This document shows, piece after piece, positions 7,754 through 45,607 of a DNA stretch of 64,000 nt (its first letter is position 1; the number at the start of each line of letters is the position of its first letter). The stretch lies in NCBI RefSeq assembly GCF_044324875.1, contig NZ_CP172185.1, one strand, 5' to 3'. The notes under the pieces are model-generated. The model did no database searches. It was given only the letters and a program-made list of their open reading frames with translations, and was not told the origin of the DNA. A program made the translations under genes and the position numbers. The stretch is from Escherichia coli (lineage in GTDB: Bacteria > Pseudomonadota > Gammaproteobacteria > Enterobacterales > Enterobacteriaceae).

Positions 7754-7859
7754 AGTAAATGCCAAAAAAAAGGAAGGTTTAAATAAACGCTGGAATGAAT
7801 AATTAACGTTATTTACGTGTTATGGGAAAAGTGAAATCAGCTCATAACATACGCTGACA

Positions 7860-8060
7860 GGTGTGGCACATTTGTGCCAGGGAAGAGGGTGAAAATCCCT
7901 CGCAGCCCCCGCTGCTGTAATGCTGACAAACCCGAAAATGCCACTGATCGCGAGATTGGGAAGGTCGGGTGAGGATGACGCTAAGCCAGAAGACCAGTCT
8001 GTCAGTCAATACCAACAACTTCGGTGGGAAGTGGGTTGCCCGGAAGCGTCCGGTAGAGTA
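7860..8060 (+). ncRNA. Cobalamin (B12) riboswitch-like leader
   Basis: Contains GTGCCAGGGAAGAGGGTGAAAATCCC, GCAGCCCCCGCTGCTGTAA, GCCACTG and a B12-box-like AAGCCAGAAGACCAGTC, all resembling conserved cobalamin-riboswitch segments as in the btuB and cob leaders. Confidence 0.7.
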
Positions 8061-22873: not shown

Positions 22874-31489
<8,616 letters not shown>

Positions 31490-31801
31490 GCTTACCTTCC
31501 CTGAACGAGCTAACATAAATGCGCCCTTTCTAGCACAGCGAAAAAAAGTAAATCCTGATAGCAATATGATTGAAAATTAATAACTTTTCGTTAAGCAGTT
31601 TTGGGTGTGAGTTGCAAGGGGGAGACTACTGAATTACTCAAGTTTTATAATCGAGGGGAAAATGGTGATGGCGTCCATAGCAAAACGCCCTCAACCATTA
31701 AGGTCGAGGGCGCTTAAGATGTCAAAAACCCGCTATCCGTTAAAAAGCAATGCTCAACTAAGGTCAGTGACATTGGGCTAAAAAAGCGAATTTTTAGAAT
31801 T

Positions 31802-31877
31802 TGGCTCCTCTGACTGGACTCGAACCAGTGACATACGGATTAACAGTCCGCCGTTCTACCGACTGAACTACAGAGGA
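31802..31877 (-). tRNA. asnT: tRNA-Asn (anticodon GUU)
   Basis: Fourth copy of the identical 76-nt tRNA-Asn sequence, minus strand. Confidence 0.95.
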
Positions 31878-31977: not shown

Positions 31978-32775
31978 TTAATGAACATTCGTCGTCGAAA
32001 ACGAGTCTGTATCATTAGCGTGATGCAGTCTCTGCAAAGGATCTTGTTGATAAAATTGGCAGAAACGTTGCCACAATGAAGGGAAACGAGGAGCAAAAAG
32101 TTCTGGGGCGCTAAAGAAATATTCAGAAAGTACGGCAAAACATTCAGCAGGATCACTGGCAGCATAAGCATCAATGCTCGCCGCATTCACGCCAACTAAT
32201 TCGATTTCTTCCTGAATGTTGTTCATTGCAGCATGAAGATCGTGTTCCCAGCCAGCAACCTCACGCAACGGAATAAAGGGAACTCCGCTGGCGCGATCGC
32301 CGTTACGGGTGTCCAGCTTATGAGCGACTTCATGAATAATCAGGTTAAAACCAGAAGCATCAAAAGAATCTTGTATATCCAACCAGTTCAAAACGATAGG
32401 CCCTTGCTGCCAGCTCTGACCTGACTGAACAATACGTTGGTTATGCACCAGACCGATATCGTCTTCCCATTCATCATCGACCACAAATGGCGCAGGATAA
32501 ATTAAGACTTCATGAAAACCATCCAGCCATTCCAGTCCTAACTCCAGAACGGGAAGGCAAAATAGAAGTGCTATCCGGCAGCTTCTTAATGAATCCAGTT
32601 CAAAGCCCTGTAAAGGAACAAGCCGCTTTTGCTGTAAAAAACGTTCGGCAAGAGTGACTAATTTGCTTTGTTCCTGTTCCGTCAGACACGTTAAAAGGGG
32701 GATCGATAGTGCTTCCTGCCAGGGAAGGGCAGTTTGATGTGCTGATTCTTGTACTTTCCAGGGCCACTTAATCAT
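31978..32775 (-). CDS. mtfA: Zinc-dependent peptidase MtfA (Mlc titration factor A)
   Basis: ORF track frame 31978..32814; start at internal MIKWPWK...; HEXXH zinc motif ([10 protein letters not shown]). Confidence 0.9.
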
Positions 32776-32867
32776 CGTTTTGCTCGCAAACTCGTCACTT
32801 GAACAAAATTGCACGGACAGGGACTGTTAAAATGCCAAATTTCCTGGCATCATGGCAACCATCTGAA

Positions 32868-32957
32868 CGGAGAGATGCCGGAGCGGCTGAACGGACCGGT
32901 CTCGAAAACCGGAGTGGGGGCAACTCCACCGGGGGTTCAAATCCCCCTCTCTCCGCC
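32868..32957 (+). tRNA. serU: tRNA-Ser (anticodon CGA)
   Basis: GGAGAGATGCCGGAGCGGCTGAACGGACCGGTCTCGAAAACCGGAGTGGGGGCAACTCCACCGGGGGTTCAAATCCCCCTCTCTCCGCCA: long-variable-arm class II tRNA with anticodon CGA. Confidence 0.9.
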
Positions 32958-33002
32958 AAAATTCAATCACTTATACATCATTAAGTCAGTGACAAAAATC
33001 AC

Positions 33003-33038
33003 ACTTGGAATTACTTGGAATATTTTCTTGGAATATTT
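33003..33038. repeat. Three direct CTTGGAAT repeats next to the attachment site (candidate integrase arm-type sites)
   Basis: CTTGGAAT at about 33003, 33013 and 33026, with GGAATATTTT occurring twice; lies between the tRNA-Ser 3' end and the integrase 3' end. Confidence 0.35.
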
Positions 33039-34036
33039 TCAGGTAACGGGACATCAAGTGTTGGTGAAACTTTAACCTTCCGGTCATAGATTAGCACTTG
33101 CCCTTCGGTTTTGTGACCAGAGAAAAGTTGCTTATCCCGGCTGCTTCCTTCATAGTCTGAAATTCCTTTCGCCTTCAGATCATGAAAGGTGAAGTCGGTT
33201 AAAATACCTGAAACTTTGCCTGCGCGATTTCTTGCTTCTACCCACATTTCGTTAAAGCCTTTGTACATATATCGGTTGCCGTATTGATTGCTGATCACAT
33301 AGGCGGATTTTGGTAACTGTTTTGCTTTTTCGACCGCTGCCTGTAATCGTGGACTCCATGCTTTTATCTGTTTTTTCCCTGTTTTCCCTTGCTGGATAAA
33401 GATCCCGTCGTTTCCAATCTGCTCCCATTTCAGCGATAACACATCGGAAACCCTCGCTGCACACAGATAGGCAATTTCCATTGCGATAAAAACAGGAAGG
33501 GGTGCCACGCTTAATACTGCCTGGTATTCTTTGTCGGTTACATATCGTTCGCGGTTTTTGGCCTTGAATTTACTTACTCCTGCACATGGGTTAGCCTTCA
33601 CGTACCCTCGCTCATACCCCCAACTGTAAACACGGGACATACTGCTTTTTTCATGGTTGGCTTGCGTTTTACTCTGTTCCCCTCTTTTGTCCATGTATCG
33701 ACGGATGTGTTCTGGTTTTATGGAATCCGCTGGTACCTTACCGAATACGGCAAGCAACTTTTTTTGATGTTGCAGATAATCTTTTTGTGTTCTTGGACTA
33801 AGGTCACTGTAACAGGCGCTGGCGAGGAATTTTTCCCACAAGCGACCGAATGTCATTGCACGATCGCGATTATTTACAGTTTCCTCATACTTTTTCCATA
33901 AAGCAGCTAAACCATCCTTGATGGCGGTTAGTGTTACAGATTCTCTGGATGTTGGTTTCCATACATAACTATATTTATTTGGGTATACATTTGGAGGTAA
34001 TTTTTCGTGTTCAGGATTTTTCCTTCGTCTTCCCAT
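33011..34036 (-). CDS. int: Tyrosine recombinase (phage integrase)
   Basis: 341 aa ORF adjacent to the tRNA and reading toward it; C-terminal region has tyrosine-recombinase-like R...HxxR...Y spacing (…FTFHDLKAKGISDYEGS…HKTEGQVLIYDRK…). Confidence 0.85.
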   Translation of the reverse strand: MGRRRKNPEHEKLPPNVYPNKYSYVWKPTSRESVTLTAIKDGLAALWKKYEETVNNRDRAMTFGRLWEKFLASACYSDLSPRTQKDYLQHQKKLLAVFGKVPADSIKPEHIRRYMDKRGEQSKTQANHEKSSMSRVYSWGYERGYVKANPCAGVSKFKAKNRERYVTDKEYQAVLSVAPLPVFIAMEIAYLCAARVSDVLSLKWEQIGNDGIFIQQGKTGKKQIKAWSPRLQAAVEKAKQLPKSAYVISNQYGNRYMYKGFNEMWVEARNRAGKVSGILTDFTFHDLKAKGISDYEGSSRDKQLFSGHKTEGQVLIYDRKVKVSPTLDVPLPENIPRKYSK

Positions 34037-37137: not shown

Positions 37138-37692
37138 CTATTTAATACTCAGCAACTGCTCGACGGTCATATTTTTAATTGCGCCCCGGTTTATGAGAGT
37201 CCATCCCTGCTTTTCCAGATAAAAACGGAAAGTATCCAGAGTACAGACCAGTGCGCCATCAGGAACTGTTTCGGTGAATTTGATGTAGCCGTGTTCGTCG
37301 AAGCGGATAACCAGGGTGCGGCCATCACCCGGGATTATTTTGTCAGCGGGTGTGGTGTTATTCCGGCGCAGTTCTTCCTCCATGCGGTCGAACTCGGCAA
37401 TGTAGGCTTCCTTGAATGCAGCGGCCTTTTTGCCCGTGAAGCCCATCACAAGGAAAACGAAGCCGTTTTTGGTGATTTGGTACATTGGGAGTTTGCGTCC
37501 TGTTGAGTCGGTGTATTCGCTCGCCTTAAAATTAAGGGCAGTGAACTCAGCGGAGCAGTCCAGTAATTTTATTTTTTGGATAACATTGTCGTGACGCTTG
37601 CCAAAGAATTCCGCGATCGCAACAGACGTAGTGACAGCGCGACCATTTTCAATGGTTACGTCAGGGTGAGAAAGGGTAAGGGTAGTAGCCAT
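37138..37692 (-). CDS. Rha-family phage regulatory protein (antirepressor-like)
   Basis: ORF track frame 37138..37989; likely start at internal MATTLTLSHPDV...; Rha-like motif ...VTTSVAIAEFFGKRHDNVIQKIKLL.... Confidence 0.65.
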   Translation of the reverse strand: MATTLTLSHPDVTIENGRAVTTSVAIAEFFGKRHDNVIQKIKLLDCSAEFTALNFKASEYTDSTGRKLPMYQITKNGFVFLVMGFTGKKAAAFKEAYIAEFDRMEEELRRNNTTPADKIIPGDGRTLVIRFDEHGYIKFTETVPDGALVCTLDTFRFYLEKQGWTLINRGAIKNMTVEQLLSIK

Positions 37693-37861
37693 AATGGCAG
37701 CCTCCACGTTGAGTATTGATAACTCACCACCGAGGCTTTCCACGACCATAATGGTGGTGAGACGTACAGGGGTGGAAATACCGGTCAACGTAGAACCCGG
37801 CCAGCCTTGCGGCTGCCCTGCACGCCCCACCATAATCTGAATGTGGCTGTGCTTCACGCAT

Positions 37862-37886
37862 AAAAAAACCGCCTGAGCGCGGTTGT
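37862..37886 (-). terminator. Intrinsic terminator on the minus strand upstream of rha
   Basis: Minus strand reads AACCGCGCTCAGGCGGTT followed by a U-run (plus strand TAAAAAAACCGCCTGAGCGCGGTT). Confidence 0.45.
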
Positions 37887-38501
37887 GCGCTACGTTTGAC
37901 TTCGGGTTTCCACGCCCGGCACCCGGTTTATGAGGTGCAGGTGCACTATAATTCCACCCGTACTGGTTTTCAATAGCTACATTCAACATTTTCTCTTACC
38001 TTTCATCACCGAAGTGAACTTTGTTGATGCGGTGCCAGGTGCCTCCAGGTGACGTTAACCAGTTAACAATTAACGCCGGATACAGAGAATCCACCCATAA
38101 CTCTGTTTTTGGTTTTAACTGTTCCACGTGCGATCAGCCGCATTCACCACATCACAAAATTCACTTTAAAAAGGGCGGCAGAGCAGTCACGGAGTAAAAC
38201 TGATACCGCAAAACGTCACCAGAAAATTGATAACAGATGGCGTTGCAGCGGGGTTGTCACTCAGGCGCATGGTCAACCTGACAACCCGGTGTCCTCAAGG
38301 GGAAGGGAACCCCGCCATGCTTACCGCCGCGCCATTTCGCGGAGTGCCACAACCGGAAGCGGACGGTCGACGAAAATTTAACGACAGGCTATATATGAAC
38401 CAGCTACCTCGCCGTGCGCTTTCGTGTTGTGTGCCTGCTTTTAACCACGTCAGGCGAGGTGGTATCCTCTGAGGGGTCTGTTACCCGAGAGGAAATTGGT
38501 T

Positions 38502-38702
38502 ATGAATACAATCAAGTTTTCTTGCCCAGAATGTGGTGGCGAAGTCTTCGACACATCCTTTAAGCCGCAGGGCTCTGACAGTTTCGCGGGAGCCATCTGC
38601 AAAAATTGTGGTCACCTTGTAACTGAAGATGAGTCCTCGCAATTCGATGAGGAAATCGTTGACAATATCTTCGGTGTAATCACCGGAGCCTTTCTGAAGT
38701 AA
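38502..38702 (+). CDS. Small zinc-ribbon protein (CxxC...CxxC)
   Basis: MNTIKFSCPECGG...CKNCGH...; GAGG 8 nt upstream of the ATG; opposite orientation to neighbouring early genes. Confidence 0.5.
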   Translation: MNTIKFSCPECGGEVFDTSFKPQGSDSFAGAICKNCGHLVTEDESSQFDEEIVDNIFGVITGAFLK

Positions 38703-39068
38703 AGGCACATACCGCTTAGTTACCGCTCTGATAATTCTTACCTGCCCGGCAATGGCGCTGATGTCAATATAAAGCGCCATTGCTGCTTCTTTGCCGATCC
38801 CGGGATGCCTTCCATTCTGATGTTTGACTTCGCCCACTGAGAAATCCTCTGTTTCCCCTTAACGCCGGGGTAGCGGAACAAAAACCTGCTGCATAGTTAA
38901 AGTTAAACCCTGCCGTCATGTTCATACGCCTCGGGCTGGCTACTTAACCCCTGACCACTGCCTGGTAACTCGAAGTATTGCCCTGCGTTCTGTGGGGCGG
39001 GGTGGGTTGGTGAAATTAGTTTATACAAAAATAAACTTAACAGTCAATCTGCAACTTAACTAAACAGT

Positions 39069-39098
39069 AAAAAATAACACTCTCTTTGAGAGTGTTTA
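39069..39098 (-). terminator. Intrinsic terminator downstream of the RelE/ParE-like toxin gene
   Basis: AACACTCTC-TTT-GAGAGTGTT perfect 9-bp stem, followed on the minus strand by a U-run. Confidence 0.5.
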
Positions 39099-39121: not shown

Positions 39122-39406
39122 TTATGTTACAGGGAACTGTCGGCGGGTATGGACTACGTTTACTATTTCAATACTTGAGGTTGTCACGCGGTACAGAATT
39201 ATATAATTGGGGTGAGCCACAATCTCACGTAAGCCTGGCACTCTGTCGCTTGGGGGGTATAAATACGGATGTTCGGATAATGGCAGCACACACCCCCTTA
39301 ATCGCTGCCATAAGCGTTCTGCCGCATCTATGTCGAAACGAGCAATGTAACTAGTTATATCATCCAGGTCGGTATCTGCGCTTTCAGGCCATAACACAGG
39401 TAACAT
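39122..39406 (-). CDS. RelE/ParE-family type II toxin
   Basis: 94 aa ORF abutting the stop of an upstream small ORF; typical size and basic C-terminal region for RelE/ParE-family toxins. Confidence 0.7.
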   Translation of the reverse strand: MLPVLWPESADTDLDDITSYIARFDIDAAERLWQRLRGCVLPLSEHPYLYPPSDRVPGLREIVAHPNYIILYRVTTSSIEIVNVVHTRRQFPVT

Positions 39407-39598
39407 TTACTGTTCACTCCGTTCCTTGCGTATTTTAGCAAAGCGTTCTGCCATTCTGCGCTCAACTTCGTCATGGGGAATTGCTGGGCGCGGATCTGCA
39501 AGGCTTGCAGCTACTTTGGCTCGCAGCCATTCGTTGTAACTGTTTTCTTGTTCAATAGTTTCAAACTCAGAAACCATTGGTGAAAGGGCCGTATTCAT
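39407..39598 (-). CDS. Putative antitoxin partner of the RelE/ParE-like toxin
   Basis: Start at internal MNTALSPMVSEF... with GGAGG 7 nt upstream; 63 aa acidic protein directly upstream of and abutting the toxin gene. Confidence 0.55.
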   Translation of the reverse strand: MNTALSPMVSEFETIEQENSYNEWLRAKVAASLADPRPAIPHDEVERRMAERFAKIRKERSEQ

Positions 39599-39627
39599 GG
39601 CACACCTCCGTCTGTGTATGGTGGTCA

Positions 39628-40026
39628 TTATGCCCGATGCCCTTTCCGGGCAGCGAGCCATCTTTCAATTGTGCGATCCATTAACTCTTTTTTGTCTTTC
39701 ATCTCCTGAAGCATTTGCTCTTGATCTTCCTCTGGAAATGCCTCAAATGTTTGAAGTAGCTCCTTTTGCCTAGGAGTTATTTTTATTATATCTTGTATTC
39801 TGTCATTTTTTTCTTCATTTAACGGTAAGAAGAACCAATACTGAGGATATCCTGTTGCTTCAGATAGTTTATCTAGATTAGCTGCTGTAGGGCTTGAGAT
39901 ACCACAAACCCATCTTTGAACGGATTGTTGAGTAATGCCAATTCTGCGCGCAAGTTCTGCCTGGCTCCAGCCTGTTACCAACAAAAGCTTCCTAATTCTA
40001 AGAGCACTAATTTCGAGTACACCCAT
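39628..40026 (-). CDS. XRE-family HTH regulator (repressor-like, paralog A)
   Basis: ORF track frame 39628..40101; HTH segment SQAELARRIGITQQSVQRW; C-terminal 45 aa paralogous to the neighbouring gene; start codon uncertain. Confidence 0.6.
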   Translation of the reverse strand: MGVLEISALRIRKLLLVTGWSQAELARRIGITQQSVQRWVCGISSPTAANLDKLSEATGYPQYWFFLPLNEEKNDRIQDIIKITPRQKELLQTFEAFPEEDQEQMLQEMKDKKELMDRTIERWLAARKGHRA

Positions 40027-40060: not shown

Positions 40061-40432
40061 TCAGGCGCGGCGACCTTGCTGCGCCAACCAACGTGCGACA
40101 AAATCTTCCATTGCTTCTTTTTTGTTTCTTAGTTCTTTTATGATCTCTTGCTGTTCATTATCAGGAAATGCACTAAATATTTGTAGCAATTCCAGCTGGT
40201 TAGGGGTTAATGCTATAGCTCTTGATGATGGAGACTCTGTTATGTCTTCTGGCTCAATATCAAGATAACCCCCTGGCATCCCATATGTTTGTTCAATACG
40301 TCTAGCTGCTTTTTCGCCAAACGTAGCCTTACCGCTCATTAACTGAGATAAGTAACTTTTCTCTTTGGGTGGCAAAGTTCTGTCTTTGAACCACTCTTTG
40401 AGGCGTAAACGCCGAATCTCTCTTGTTTCCAT
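40061..40432 (-). CDS. HTH regulator (CI-like repressor lacking a peptidase domain, paralog B)
   Basis: 123 aa; C-terminal segment LTPNQLELLQIFSAFPDNEQQEIIKELRNKKEAMEDFVARWLAQ resembles that of paralog A; divergent from the Cro-like gene. Confidence 0.65.
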   Translation of the reverse strand: METREIRRLRLKEWFKDRTLPPKEKSYLSQLMSGKATFGEKAARRIEQTYGMPGGYLDIEPEDITESPSSRAIALTPNQLELLQIFSAFPDNEQQEIIKELRNKKEAMEDFVARWLAQQGRRA

Positions 40433-40535
40433 ACATGCATTATCTTTAGTAATTGCGAAATAAGCAAATACTTGACTGGTTTATTTAGTTACGTATAAAC
40501 TTTTGCTTGCACTAAAGTATGTTGAGATCGAAATC

Positions 40536-40823
40536 ATGACTCTAAAGGAATTCATCAAATCATTAAAAACTGGAGAAGCAAAAAAATTTGCTGCCAACCT
40601 TGGTGTGTCTCCGTCCTTCTTGTCTCAAATGGCATCTGGCAGTTCACCAGTGTCTCCTGTTCGTGCGTTAATGATAGAAGCAGAAACTGCAGGGCATGTT
40701 ACAAGAAGAGAGTTGAGGCCGAATGACTGGGATCTTATATGGCCGGAATACACCGGAATTACGCCCCCTTCAAGTCATAAATATGAGCTTAACACCAAAA
40801 AAGTTGATGGGGTTGATTCATGA
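40536..40823 (+). CDS. Cro/YdaS-like small DNA-binding protein
   Basis: Start at internal MTLKEFIKSLKTGEAKKFAANLGVSPSFLSQM...; divergent from the repressor genes. Confidence 0.55.
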   Translation: MTLKEFIKSLKTGEAKKFAANLGVSPSFLSQMASGSSPVSPVRALMIEAETAGHVTRRELRPNDWDLIWPEYTGITPPSSHKYELNTKKVDGVDS

Positions 40824-41245
40824 AAATCAAACATGAGCACATCCGCATGGCGATGAATGCCTGGGCGCATCCGGACGGCGAAAAAGTACCGGCTGCGAAA
40901 ATTACCAAAGCGTATTTCGAACTGGGTATGACGTTCCCGGAACTGTACGACGACAGCCACCCTGAAGCCCTGGCGCGTAATACCCAGAAAATTTTCCGCT
41001 GGGTAGAGAAAGACACCCCTGATGCAGTTGAAAAAATTCAGGCGTTGTTACCAGCGATCGAAAAGGCAATGCCACCTTTGCTGGTGGCCAGAATGCGCAG
41101 CCACAGTTCAGCTTATTTTCGGGAGCTGGTGGAGATGCGGGAACGACTGGTGAGAGACGCTGATGATTTTGTCGCGGTGGCAATAGCTGGCTTCAACCAG
41201 ATCAACCGTGGTGGCCCGGCCGGAAATGCTGTGGCTGTGCATTGA
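40820..41245 (+). CDS. YdaT-like / CII-position early regulator
   Basis: 141 aa ORF overlapping the Cro-like stop; gene order resembles Rac ydaS-ydaT-ydaU-ydaV. Confidence 0.4.
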   Translation: MKIKHEHIRMAMNAWAHPDGEKVPAAKITKAYFELGMTFPELYDDSHPEALARNTQKIFRWVEKDTPDAVEKIQALLPAIEKAMPPLLVARMRSHSSAYFRELVEMRERLVRDADDFVAVAIAGFNQINRGGPAGNAVAVH

Positions 41246-45215: not shown

Positions 45216-45451
45216 TTTTATGGATCACCTTTCTGATTGATTTCATATTGGCGAGGTGACGGGAGTTAAGTAGAATTGCTGCGGGTGCTTGAGGCTATCT
45301 GCCTCGGGCATGAACACCAACGGCAGATAGAGAAAAGCCCCAGTTAACATTATGCGTCCTGCAAGACGCTTAACATTAATCTGAGGCAGAATCTATGTCT
45401 AGCAAATGTAGGTTAGCCTCTTACGTGCCGAAAGGCAAGGAGAAGCAGGCT

Positions 45452-45607
45452 ATGAAGCAGCAAAAGGCGATGTTAGTCGCCCTGATCGTCATCTGTATTA
45501 CCGTCATTGTGACGGCACTGGTAACGAGGAAAGACCTCTGCGAGGTACGAATCCGAACCGGCCAGACGGAGGTCGCTGTCTTCACAGCTTACGAACCTGA
45601 GGAGTAA
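45452..45607 (+). CDS. hok: Hok/Gef-family type I toxin
   Basis: MKQQKAMLVALIVICITVIVTALVTRKDLCEVRIRTGQTEVAVFTAYEPEE, 51 aa, near-identical to chromosomal Hok/Gef peptides; the ORF track frame extends in-frame upstream to 45395. Confidence 0.8.
   Translation: MKQQKAMLVALIVICITVIVTALVTRKDLCEVRIRTGQTEVAVFTAYEPEE

Follow-up and report, generated by a model that had tools for sequence, protein, structure and literature searches.

The DNA analysed here, a 64,000-nucleotide stretch of Escherichia coli referred to below as the window, carries on its minus strand a small toxin-antitoxin (TA) pair. The toxin gene parE2 (39122..39406) encodes a ParE-family protein of 94 aa, and the antitoxin gene paaA2 (39407..39598) a protein of 63 aa that lacks a DNA-binding domain. 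Both were taken from the list of open reading frames, at exactly the positions claimed for them in an earlier note on this DNA, and were assigned through Pfam and PDB matches, with NCBIfam matches also used for paaA2. In profile searches the parE2 product matched Pfam PF05016 (ParE_toxin) at 3.7e-16. The paaA2 product matched PF21217 (PaaA2 'stability determinant') at 1.1e-20, with no second domain within its 63 aa, and lay above the cutoff of NCBIfam NF050103 (1.7e-24). The toxin is approximately 94-95% identical to ParE2 of O157:H7 (PDB 5CW7_B/5CZE/5CZF, E 2.6e-58) and the antitoxin approximately 92-94% identical to O157:H7 PaaA2 (PDB 3ZBE, E 2.2e-34). The low dN/dS values of both genes against their relatives (0.05-0.07 for parE2 and 0.02-0.09 for paaA2) indicate strong purifying selection on each.

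The pair has the attributes of the paaR-paaA-parE type II TA systems. The toxin belongs to the EcParE2 branch of the ParE fold, and the short PaaA antitoxin is encoded directly 5' of it. A paaR-type regulator lies directly upstream on the same strand, a position filled here by two genes, and the whole sits in a lambdoid immunity region with ydaS-ydaT divergent from it. A canonical ParD-ParE system does not fit, since the 63-aa antitoxin matches the PaaA2 family alone.

Four genes stand in a row on the minus strand in the order paaR2-type, PaaR1-type, paaA2 and parE2, with same-strand gaps of 34, 29 and 0 nt. The toxin start does abut the antitoxin stop as had been claimed: the paaA2 TAA (39409..39407) is followed at once by the parE2 ATG (39406). 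As parE2 starts one base after that stop, translational coupling is probable. The antitoxin start had likewise been described as abutting the stop of the repressor gene before it; the two genes are indeed neighbours but do not touch, with 29 nt between the stop of the PaaR1-type gene (39630..39628) and the paaA2 ATG (39598). This spacer holds a GGAGG Shine-Dalgarno sequence (39605..39609, minus strand), read from the sequence 6 nt 5' of the ATG, and GGAGG is present at the same place in the O157 locus. No evident Shine-Dalgarno sequence precedes the PaaR1-type gene. The operon ends at an intrinsic terminator (39066..39096, minus strand), in agreement with the terminator reported after the toxin gene, with a 9-bp GC-containing stem (39096..39076) and a T-run extending to about 39066. 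Its RNA folds at -12.2 kcal/mol (z = -3.4 relative to shuffles). A scan of the minus strand of the operon gave no terminator-like site ahead of 39096. The short gaps, lack of an internal terminator and conserved PRM hexamers (see below) are consistent with a single transcript.

Upstream of this row lie the elements of a lambdoid immunity region. The paaR2-type gene (40061..40432, minus strand) encodes a CI-analogue repressor of 123 aa that is 71-75% identical to O157:H7 PaaR2 and matches phrog_5736 at 1e-28. It adjoins the operators, the same position as in the cryptic prophage CP-933P of O157:H7. The regulator gene adjoining the antitoxin gene is the PaaR1-type second one, and the operator-side repressor is the PaaR2-type one further upstream. 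A PRM-like promoter, TTGCTT-17-GATAAT (40439..40467, minus strand), shares its hexamers and spacing with O157:H7. We infer that the paaR2 mRNA is leaderless, as the -10 element ends 6 nt 5' of the A of the paaR2 ATG; in O157, 5' RACE places the paaR2 transcription start on the ATG (PMC8630535).

The promoter scan further identified a PR/OR look-alike, TTGACT-18-TAAACT (40472..40501, plus strand), that would drive ydaS-ydaT, and a PL/OL look-alike with the same hexamers (39018..39047, minus strand) just 3' of the TA terminator. Together these form a 30-nt inverted repeat flanking the entire cassette. A corresponding arrangement is known from CP-933P, in which PL933P lies beyond the TA genes and has the same -35 and -10 elements as PR933P (PMC8630535). 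The published half-site GTTTAGTAA has one-mismatch copies at OL (39057) and OR (40444), with a window-wide count at chance level. For this reason the 30-nt OL/OR inverted repeat was used as operator evidence instead.

On the plus strand, the ydaS-like Cro analogue (40539..40823; Pfam YdaS_toxin 8.2e-10, phrog_35 repressor 6.4e-17) is followed by the ydaT-like CII analogue (40820..41245; Pfam YdaT_toxin 6.8e-10, phrog_163 CII-like activator 9.8e-46). The YdaT box TTGATTCATGAAAATCAA, a perfect palindrome (40813..40830, plus strand), covers both the stop codon of ydaS and the start codon of ydaT. Its consensus TTGATTN6AATCAA occurs without mismatch only once in the 64 kb, at this junction. By analogy with the published system, from which both the motif (PMC9986795) and the position of PRE (PMC8630535) were taken, the box likely marks a PRE-type promoter.

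The prophage begins at a tRNA-Ser gene (32869..32958) and an integrase gene (33011..34036), the integrase abutting tRNA-Ser(cga), and contains a RecE-like exonuclease, replication genes, DUF1627 and further phage genes. In its chromosomal part the window is 95-99% identical to nearly all complete E. coli genomes; this part contains four tRNA-Asn genes and a cobalamin riboswitch (7842..8016). Before the prophage are an ORF of 2896 aa (22874..31564, minus strand) and a Peptidase_M90 gene (31978..32814), with 31802..31877 in the same stretch. The prophage also carries the DicF sRNA (38173..38224, minus strand, 67.3 bits), located 3' of the PL look-alike, where Qin-type prophages have it too. Matches to C4 antisense RNA and IsrK RNA (37750..37837 and 37862..37938, minus strand) fall in the 5' part of a 283-aa ORF with Ash and Rha domains (37138..37989, minus strand), a layout similar to the P1 c4-ant and Gifsy isrK antirepressor modules; the true start of this Ash/Rha gene is probably later than that of the ORF. 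Two opposite-strand ORFs overlap nearby, 38481..38837 on the minus strand (phrog_21318, 2e-61) and 38496..38702 on the plus strand, a 68-aa zinc-ribbon ORF annotated by RefSeq as 'ECs_2282 family' in related loci and on which gene callers disagree across siblings. The prophage probably also has a hok/sok-type type I toxin-antitoxin locus, the Rfam sok antitoxin RNA being matched at 45283..45457 (plus strand) with 114.9 bits relative to a gathering score of 59.

The closest described system is paaR2-paaA2-parE2 of CP-933P/Sp12 (Hallez 2010; Sterckx 2016; Jurenas 2021, PMC8630535), which occupies the same lambdoid immunity site in the same species. The likeness extends to the divergent ydaS-ydaT genes, the PRM hexamers, the PL/PR pair, the YdaT box and the flanking genes, with a common order of exonuclease, dicB, ECs_2282 and parE2-paaA2-paaR2, divergent from ydaS-ydaT and the replication genes. 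[quoted passage not shown] According to PMC4803016, which summarises Hallez 2010, the three genes of O157:H7 paaR-paaA-parE are co-transcribed from a sigma-70 promoter 5' of paaR. The same source states that PaaA-ParE gives partial repression, that complete repression requires PaaR, and that there is no cross-neutralisation between the two O157 paralogues. Post-segregational killing that depends on ClpXP and ClpAP has been demonstrated experimentally for the O157:H7 orthologue (PMC8630535, PMC4803016).

The window differs from CP-933P in several respects. A 132-aa PaaR1-type HTH gene is added between paaR2 and paaA2, ParE2 has 2 extra residues and an L7P substitution, the operators are different and YdaS is 62% identical. 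Immunity specificity is probably different on account of the operators and YdaS. With an extra gene of 399 nt between paaR2 and paaA2, the published operon map cannot be transferred base for base. Each sequence feature described for CP-933P in the cited work has a counterpart in the window, which supports the earlier reading of the locus; that interpretation is essentially right and already in the literature. The gene identities, their order and spacing, the terminator, the promoter and operator look-alikes and the purifying selection were established directly on the window. Very probably, by analogy with this orthologue, the pair is a PaaA2-ParE2 type II TA addiction module located distally in the immunity operon of a lambdoid prophage and working as in CP-933P.

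In the orthologue the TA genes are transcribed in the 'lysogenic' and 'lytic' states alike, and switching between them frees no toxin (PMC8630535). The earlier note had tied addiction to the lysogenic state; the addiction part stands on the strength of the orthologue, but the coupling is to retention of the DNA and not to the lysogenic state as such, because the pair is on in both states without toxin release.

The second regulator, designated repressor paralog A in the earlier note, is an XRE/HTH_3 protein of 132 aa (39628..40026, minus strand; HTH_3 9.7e-12) encoded between paaR2 and paaA2. The HTH_3 domain forms its N-terminal part, and only over the C-terminal 52 aa does it resemble the PaaR2-type protein, with 48% identity there. 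Its closer relatives are the HTH regulator ahead of the second O157:H7 paaA-parE pair (locus L100; 62% identical) and the 'type B' prophage regulators (L087-L096, L101 and L102; 67-69%). The type-B regulators are encoded by a single gene that adjoins its own operator region and is followed by paaA-parE. L100, which is paaR1-paaA1-parE1 by elimination, has the same regulator-antitoxin-toxin order as the window, and its regulator shares its length and C-terminal domain with the window's second regulator, while the two TA proteins it encodes share only 73% and 67% identity with those of the window. The PaaR1-type gene of L100 adjoins divergent operators, whereas the window's copy lies inside the operon and lacks operators of this kind. 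A clean indel of some 430-460 bp accounts for the lack of the PaaR1-type gene in the O157 paaR2 locus; both O157:H7 (L002) and phage Evi (L004) have a paaR2 to paaA2 gap of 20 nt with no gene between. The tandem layout departs from both described O157 loci, and a literature search of incomplete coverage found no account of it.

A dN/dS of 0.25 between diverged versions of the PaaR1-type gene places it under purifying selection. In L088-L096, sites resembling ACACTTTWWAAGT, a type-B operator motif derived in the present analysis and not a published one, occur at both OR and OL. None of the sites in the window's immunity region matched when ACACTTTWWAAGT-like operators were sought there, and, the motif being self-derived, its absence near the window's repressors is suggestive only. 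A functional dual-repressor cassette is a possible but doubtful reading of these data, in which a PaaR2-type repressor acts at the operators and is followed by an internal PaaR1-type regulator without cognate operators and then by paaA2-parE2. The PaaR1-type protein might then confer cross-immunity against heteroimmune PaaR1-type phages, or form mixed oligomers through the shared C-terminal domain, with the TA pair enforcing retention.

Several apparent variants of the two repressor genes were considered. A 78-aa frameshifted second regulator (P0067) was set aside as a possible assembly error, being found on a single 1.7-kb contig; its cluster of 198 members is mixed, with PaaA2 sequences also inside. 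Truncations of paaR2 to 65 aa in L106 and L108 were rejected, as the ORFs proved intact on inspection; with paaR2 leaderless, these calls are gene-caller artefacts. A 65-aa annotation of paaR2 is also found in L099. The complete genome of E. coli RM10466 (L001, 4950..5010) carries a diverged copy of the PaaR1-type gene that is frameshifted by the loss of one nucleotide from a T-run close to codon 15; its stop codon is lost so that it overlaps paaA2, reflecting either decay or sequencing error.

The four-gene cassette was found repeatedly, in hundreds of E. coli assemblies, and is no accident of a single strain. The identical 132-aa PaaR1-type protein occurs on 835 contigs in 806 blocks of the sequence collection, and the exact PaaA2, PaaR1-type and PaaR2-type proteins on approximately 800-900 contigs. 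Sibling cassettes are 99.9% identical across 1421 nt though their flanking prophage genes differ, and diverged versions of the cassette are present in 16 of the 5426 complete E. coli genomes. Beyond this species, relatives of ParE2 (43-75% identical) occur across Alpha-, Beta- and Gammaproteobacteria. In 77 of 80 such loci the toxin gene is preceded by one for a PaaA2 homologue (median length about 64 aa), the two forming a bare two-gene cassette, and no PaaR-like neighbour was found in those 77. Scanning species-representative contigs for ParE2 revealed the prophage in no enterobacterial representative, and the only close match was on a contig of a 'Collinsella' MAG (L005) whose DNA resembles that of E. 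coli. This distribution fits the published suggestion of a mobile two-gene cassette captured by the immunity regions of E. coli lambdoid prophages.

Other readings of the pair concern the activity of its toxin and the purpose it serves. The earlier note had called it RelE/ParE-type, and the HMM classification retains the superfamily, on the ParE branch, and drops RelE. A ribosome-dependent mRNA interferase activity of the RelE type is extremely unlikely for the toxin: RelE and ParE do share a superfamily fold and the NCBIfam search gave a weak match to RelE_StbE (TIGR02385, E 2.3e-4), but the score of 21.6 is under the cutoff of 27.9, the remaining solved relatives in the PDB sequence search (6X0A, 3KXE and 5CEG) are, like 5CW7, all ParE, and the orthologue localises to the nucleoid and induces the SOS response (PMC8630535). 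A main role in anti-phage defence of the lysogen by abortive infection, rather than in addiction, would be suggested by the position of the pair between the repressor gene and PL. This is reminiscent of lambda cI-rexA-rexB, where accessory genes between the repressor and PL/OL are likewise co-transcribed with the repressor from PRM/PRE. Some type II TA systems take part in phage defence. The rexAB genes have no sequence relation to the pair, and Rex acts in exclusion and is no ParE-type TA. Against a defence role, no phage-sensing component is evident, and neither the toxin nor the antitoxin matched any PADLOC 2.0 model of anti-phage or abortive-infection systems. The orthologue is published as stabilising a plasmid, and its toxin is activated in neither state (PMC8630535). 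The abortive-infection activity proposed earlier thus finds no support, and we give the defence reading little credence.

Two further alternatives leave the identity of the pair intact. Its own promoter, within or after the PaaR1-type gene, could drive the TA genes and so uncouple them from the repressor or repressors. The sole promoter-like site 5' of paaA2 within the operon, ATGACA-16-AAAAAT (39806..39779, minus strand), would be the candidate, and the bare two-gene pairs elsewhere in Proteobacteria must carry promoters of their own; moreover, the TA reporter of the orthologue is appreciably on in both transcriptional states (PMC8630535). Yet the site matches the consensus at only 9 of 12 positions, and promoter-like sites in the region are no commoner than in shuffles (3 versus 4.1 ± 1.6 expected). 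No terminator precedes paaA2, and the O157 locus is co-transcribed from a promoter 5' of paaR (PMC4803016). A separate promoter therefore appears unlikely, if a little less so than the defence role. The remaining alternative concerns codon 7 of parE2 (39386..39388), which encodes Pro in the window and Leu in sibling loci that are otherwise 99.9% identical. The substitution could weaken the window's ParE2, and in the extreme case the toxin of this strain would be attenuated or dead and the pair a non-functional remnant. In favour of this, L7P is private, the exact allele being found on 2 contigs only and thus rare relative to the common one, and Leu is present at this position in 8 of the 9 other aligned sequences. 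Against it, the parE2 ORF is intact and position 7 is variable, with Thr in the Komagataeibacter homologue. We also take the position to be at a strand-to-helix junction of the ParE fold, where Pro is commonly tolerated. An attenuated or dead toxin is in our view improbable, to much the same degree as the defence role.

As a very probable addiction module of the PaaA2-ParE2 type, the pair can be set beside other three-component and ParE-based systems. Canonical parDE of RK2, Caulobacter crescentus and Vibrio cholerae has the same ParE fold and an antitoxin gene before the toxin gene. In contrast to ParD, which has a DNA-binding domain and autoregulates its operon, PaaA2 has none and relies on separate regulators (PMC8630535). 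The ParE branch of the window is not known to inhibit gyrase. The omega-epsilon-zeta and other tripartite type II TA systems also have a regulator as a third gene 5' of antitoxin and toxin (PMC4803016, PMC8138530), but their families are unrelated to those of the window, whose regulator is at the same time the prophage immunity repressor.

Co-transcription, toxicity, neutralisation, proteolysis and addiction would carry over to the window from the orthologue, and the purifying selection on paaA2 and parE2 lends indirect support to toxicity, neutralisation and addiction. The mechanism envisaged on this basis starts from a lysogen in which the weak, leaderless PRM-type promoter (40467..40439) would produce one mRNA for the PaaR2-type and PaaR1-type regulators, paaA2 and parE2, with its 3' end at the hairpin 39096..39066. 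During establishment, a leftward promoter near the 40813..40830 box that depends on the CII-like YdaT could supply the same operon. Translation of paaA2 would proceed from its own strong ribosome binding site, with that of parE2 probably coupled to it. PaaA2, short and without a DNA-binding domain and presumably disordered and protease-labile, would neutralise ParE2 by wrapping around it. Should the DNA be lost or the operon replaced, ClpXP and ClpAP would be expected to degrade PaaA2. The stable ParE2 left free would then poison the nucleoid, as suggested by SOS induction in the orthologue, and kill the segregant, so that the immunity region and the prophage would be stabilised. With regard to the target, Sterckx and colleagues reportedly detected no GyrA binding by O157 ParE2 in 2016.

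As a TA pair the locus offers nothing new, the structure, regulation and addictive behaviour of the system having already been published. Its value is one of annotation: the pair is PaaA2-ParE2 and not RelE, and ydaS/ydaT are Cro and CII analogues and not a TA pair. The tandem-regulator variant is the sole departure from the known system and a modest curiosity. If the second repressor is cross-immune or modulates the first, the addictive module would drag regulators along when lambdoid immunity regions recombine. The dual-repressor reading, if true, would provide a concrete case of the published idea that this TA system polices recombination in immunity regions.
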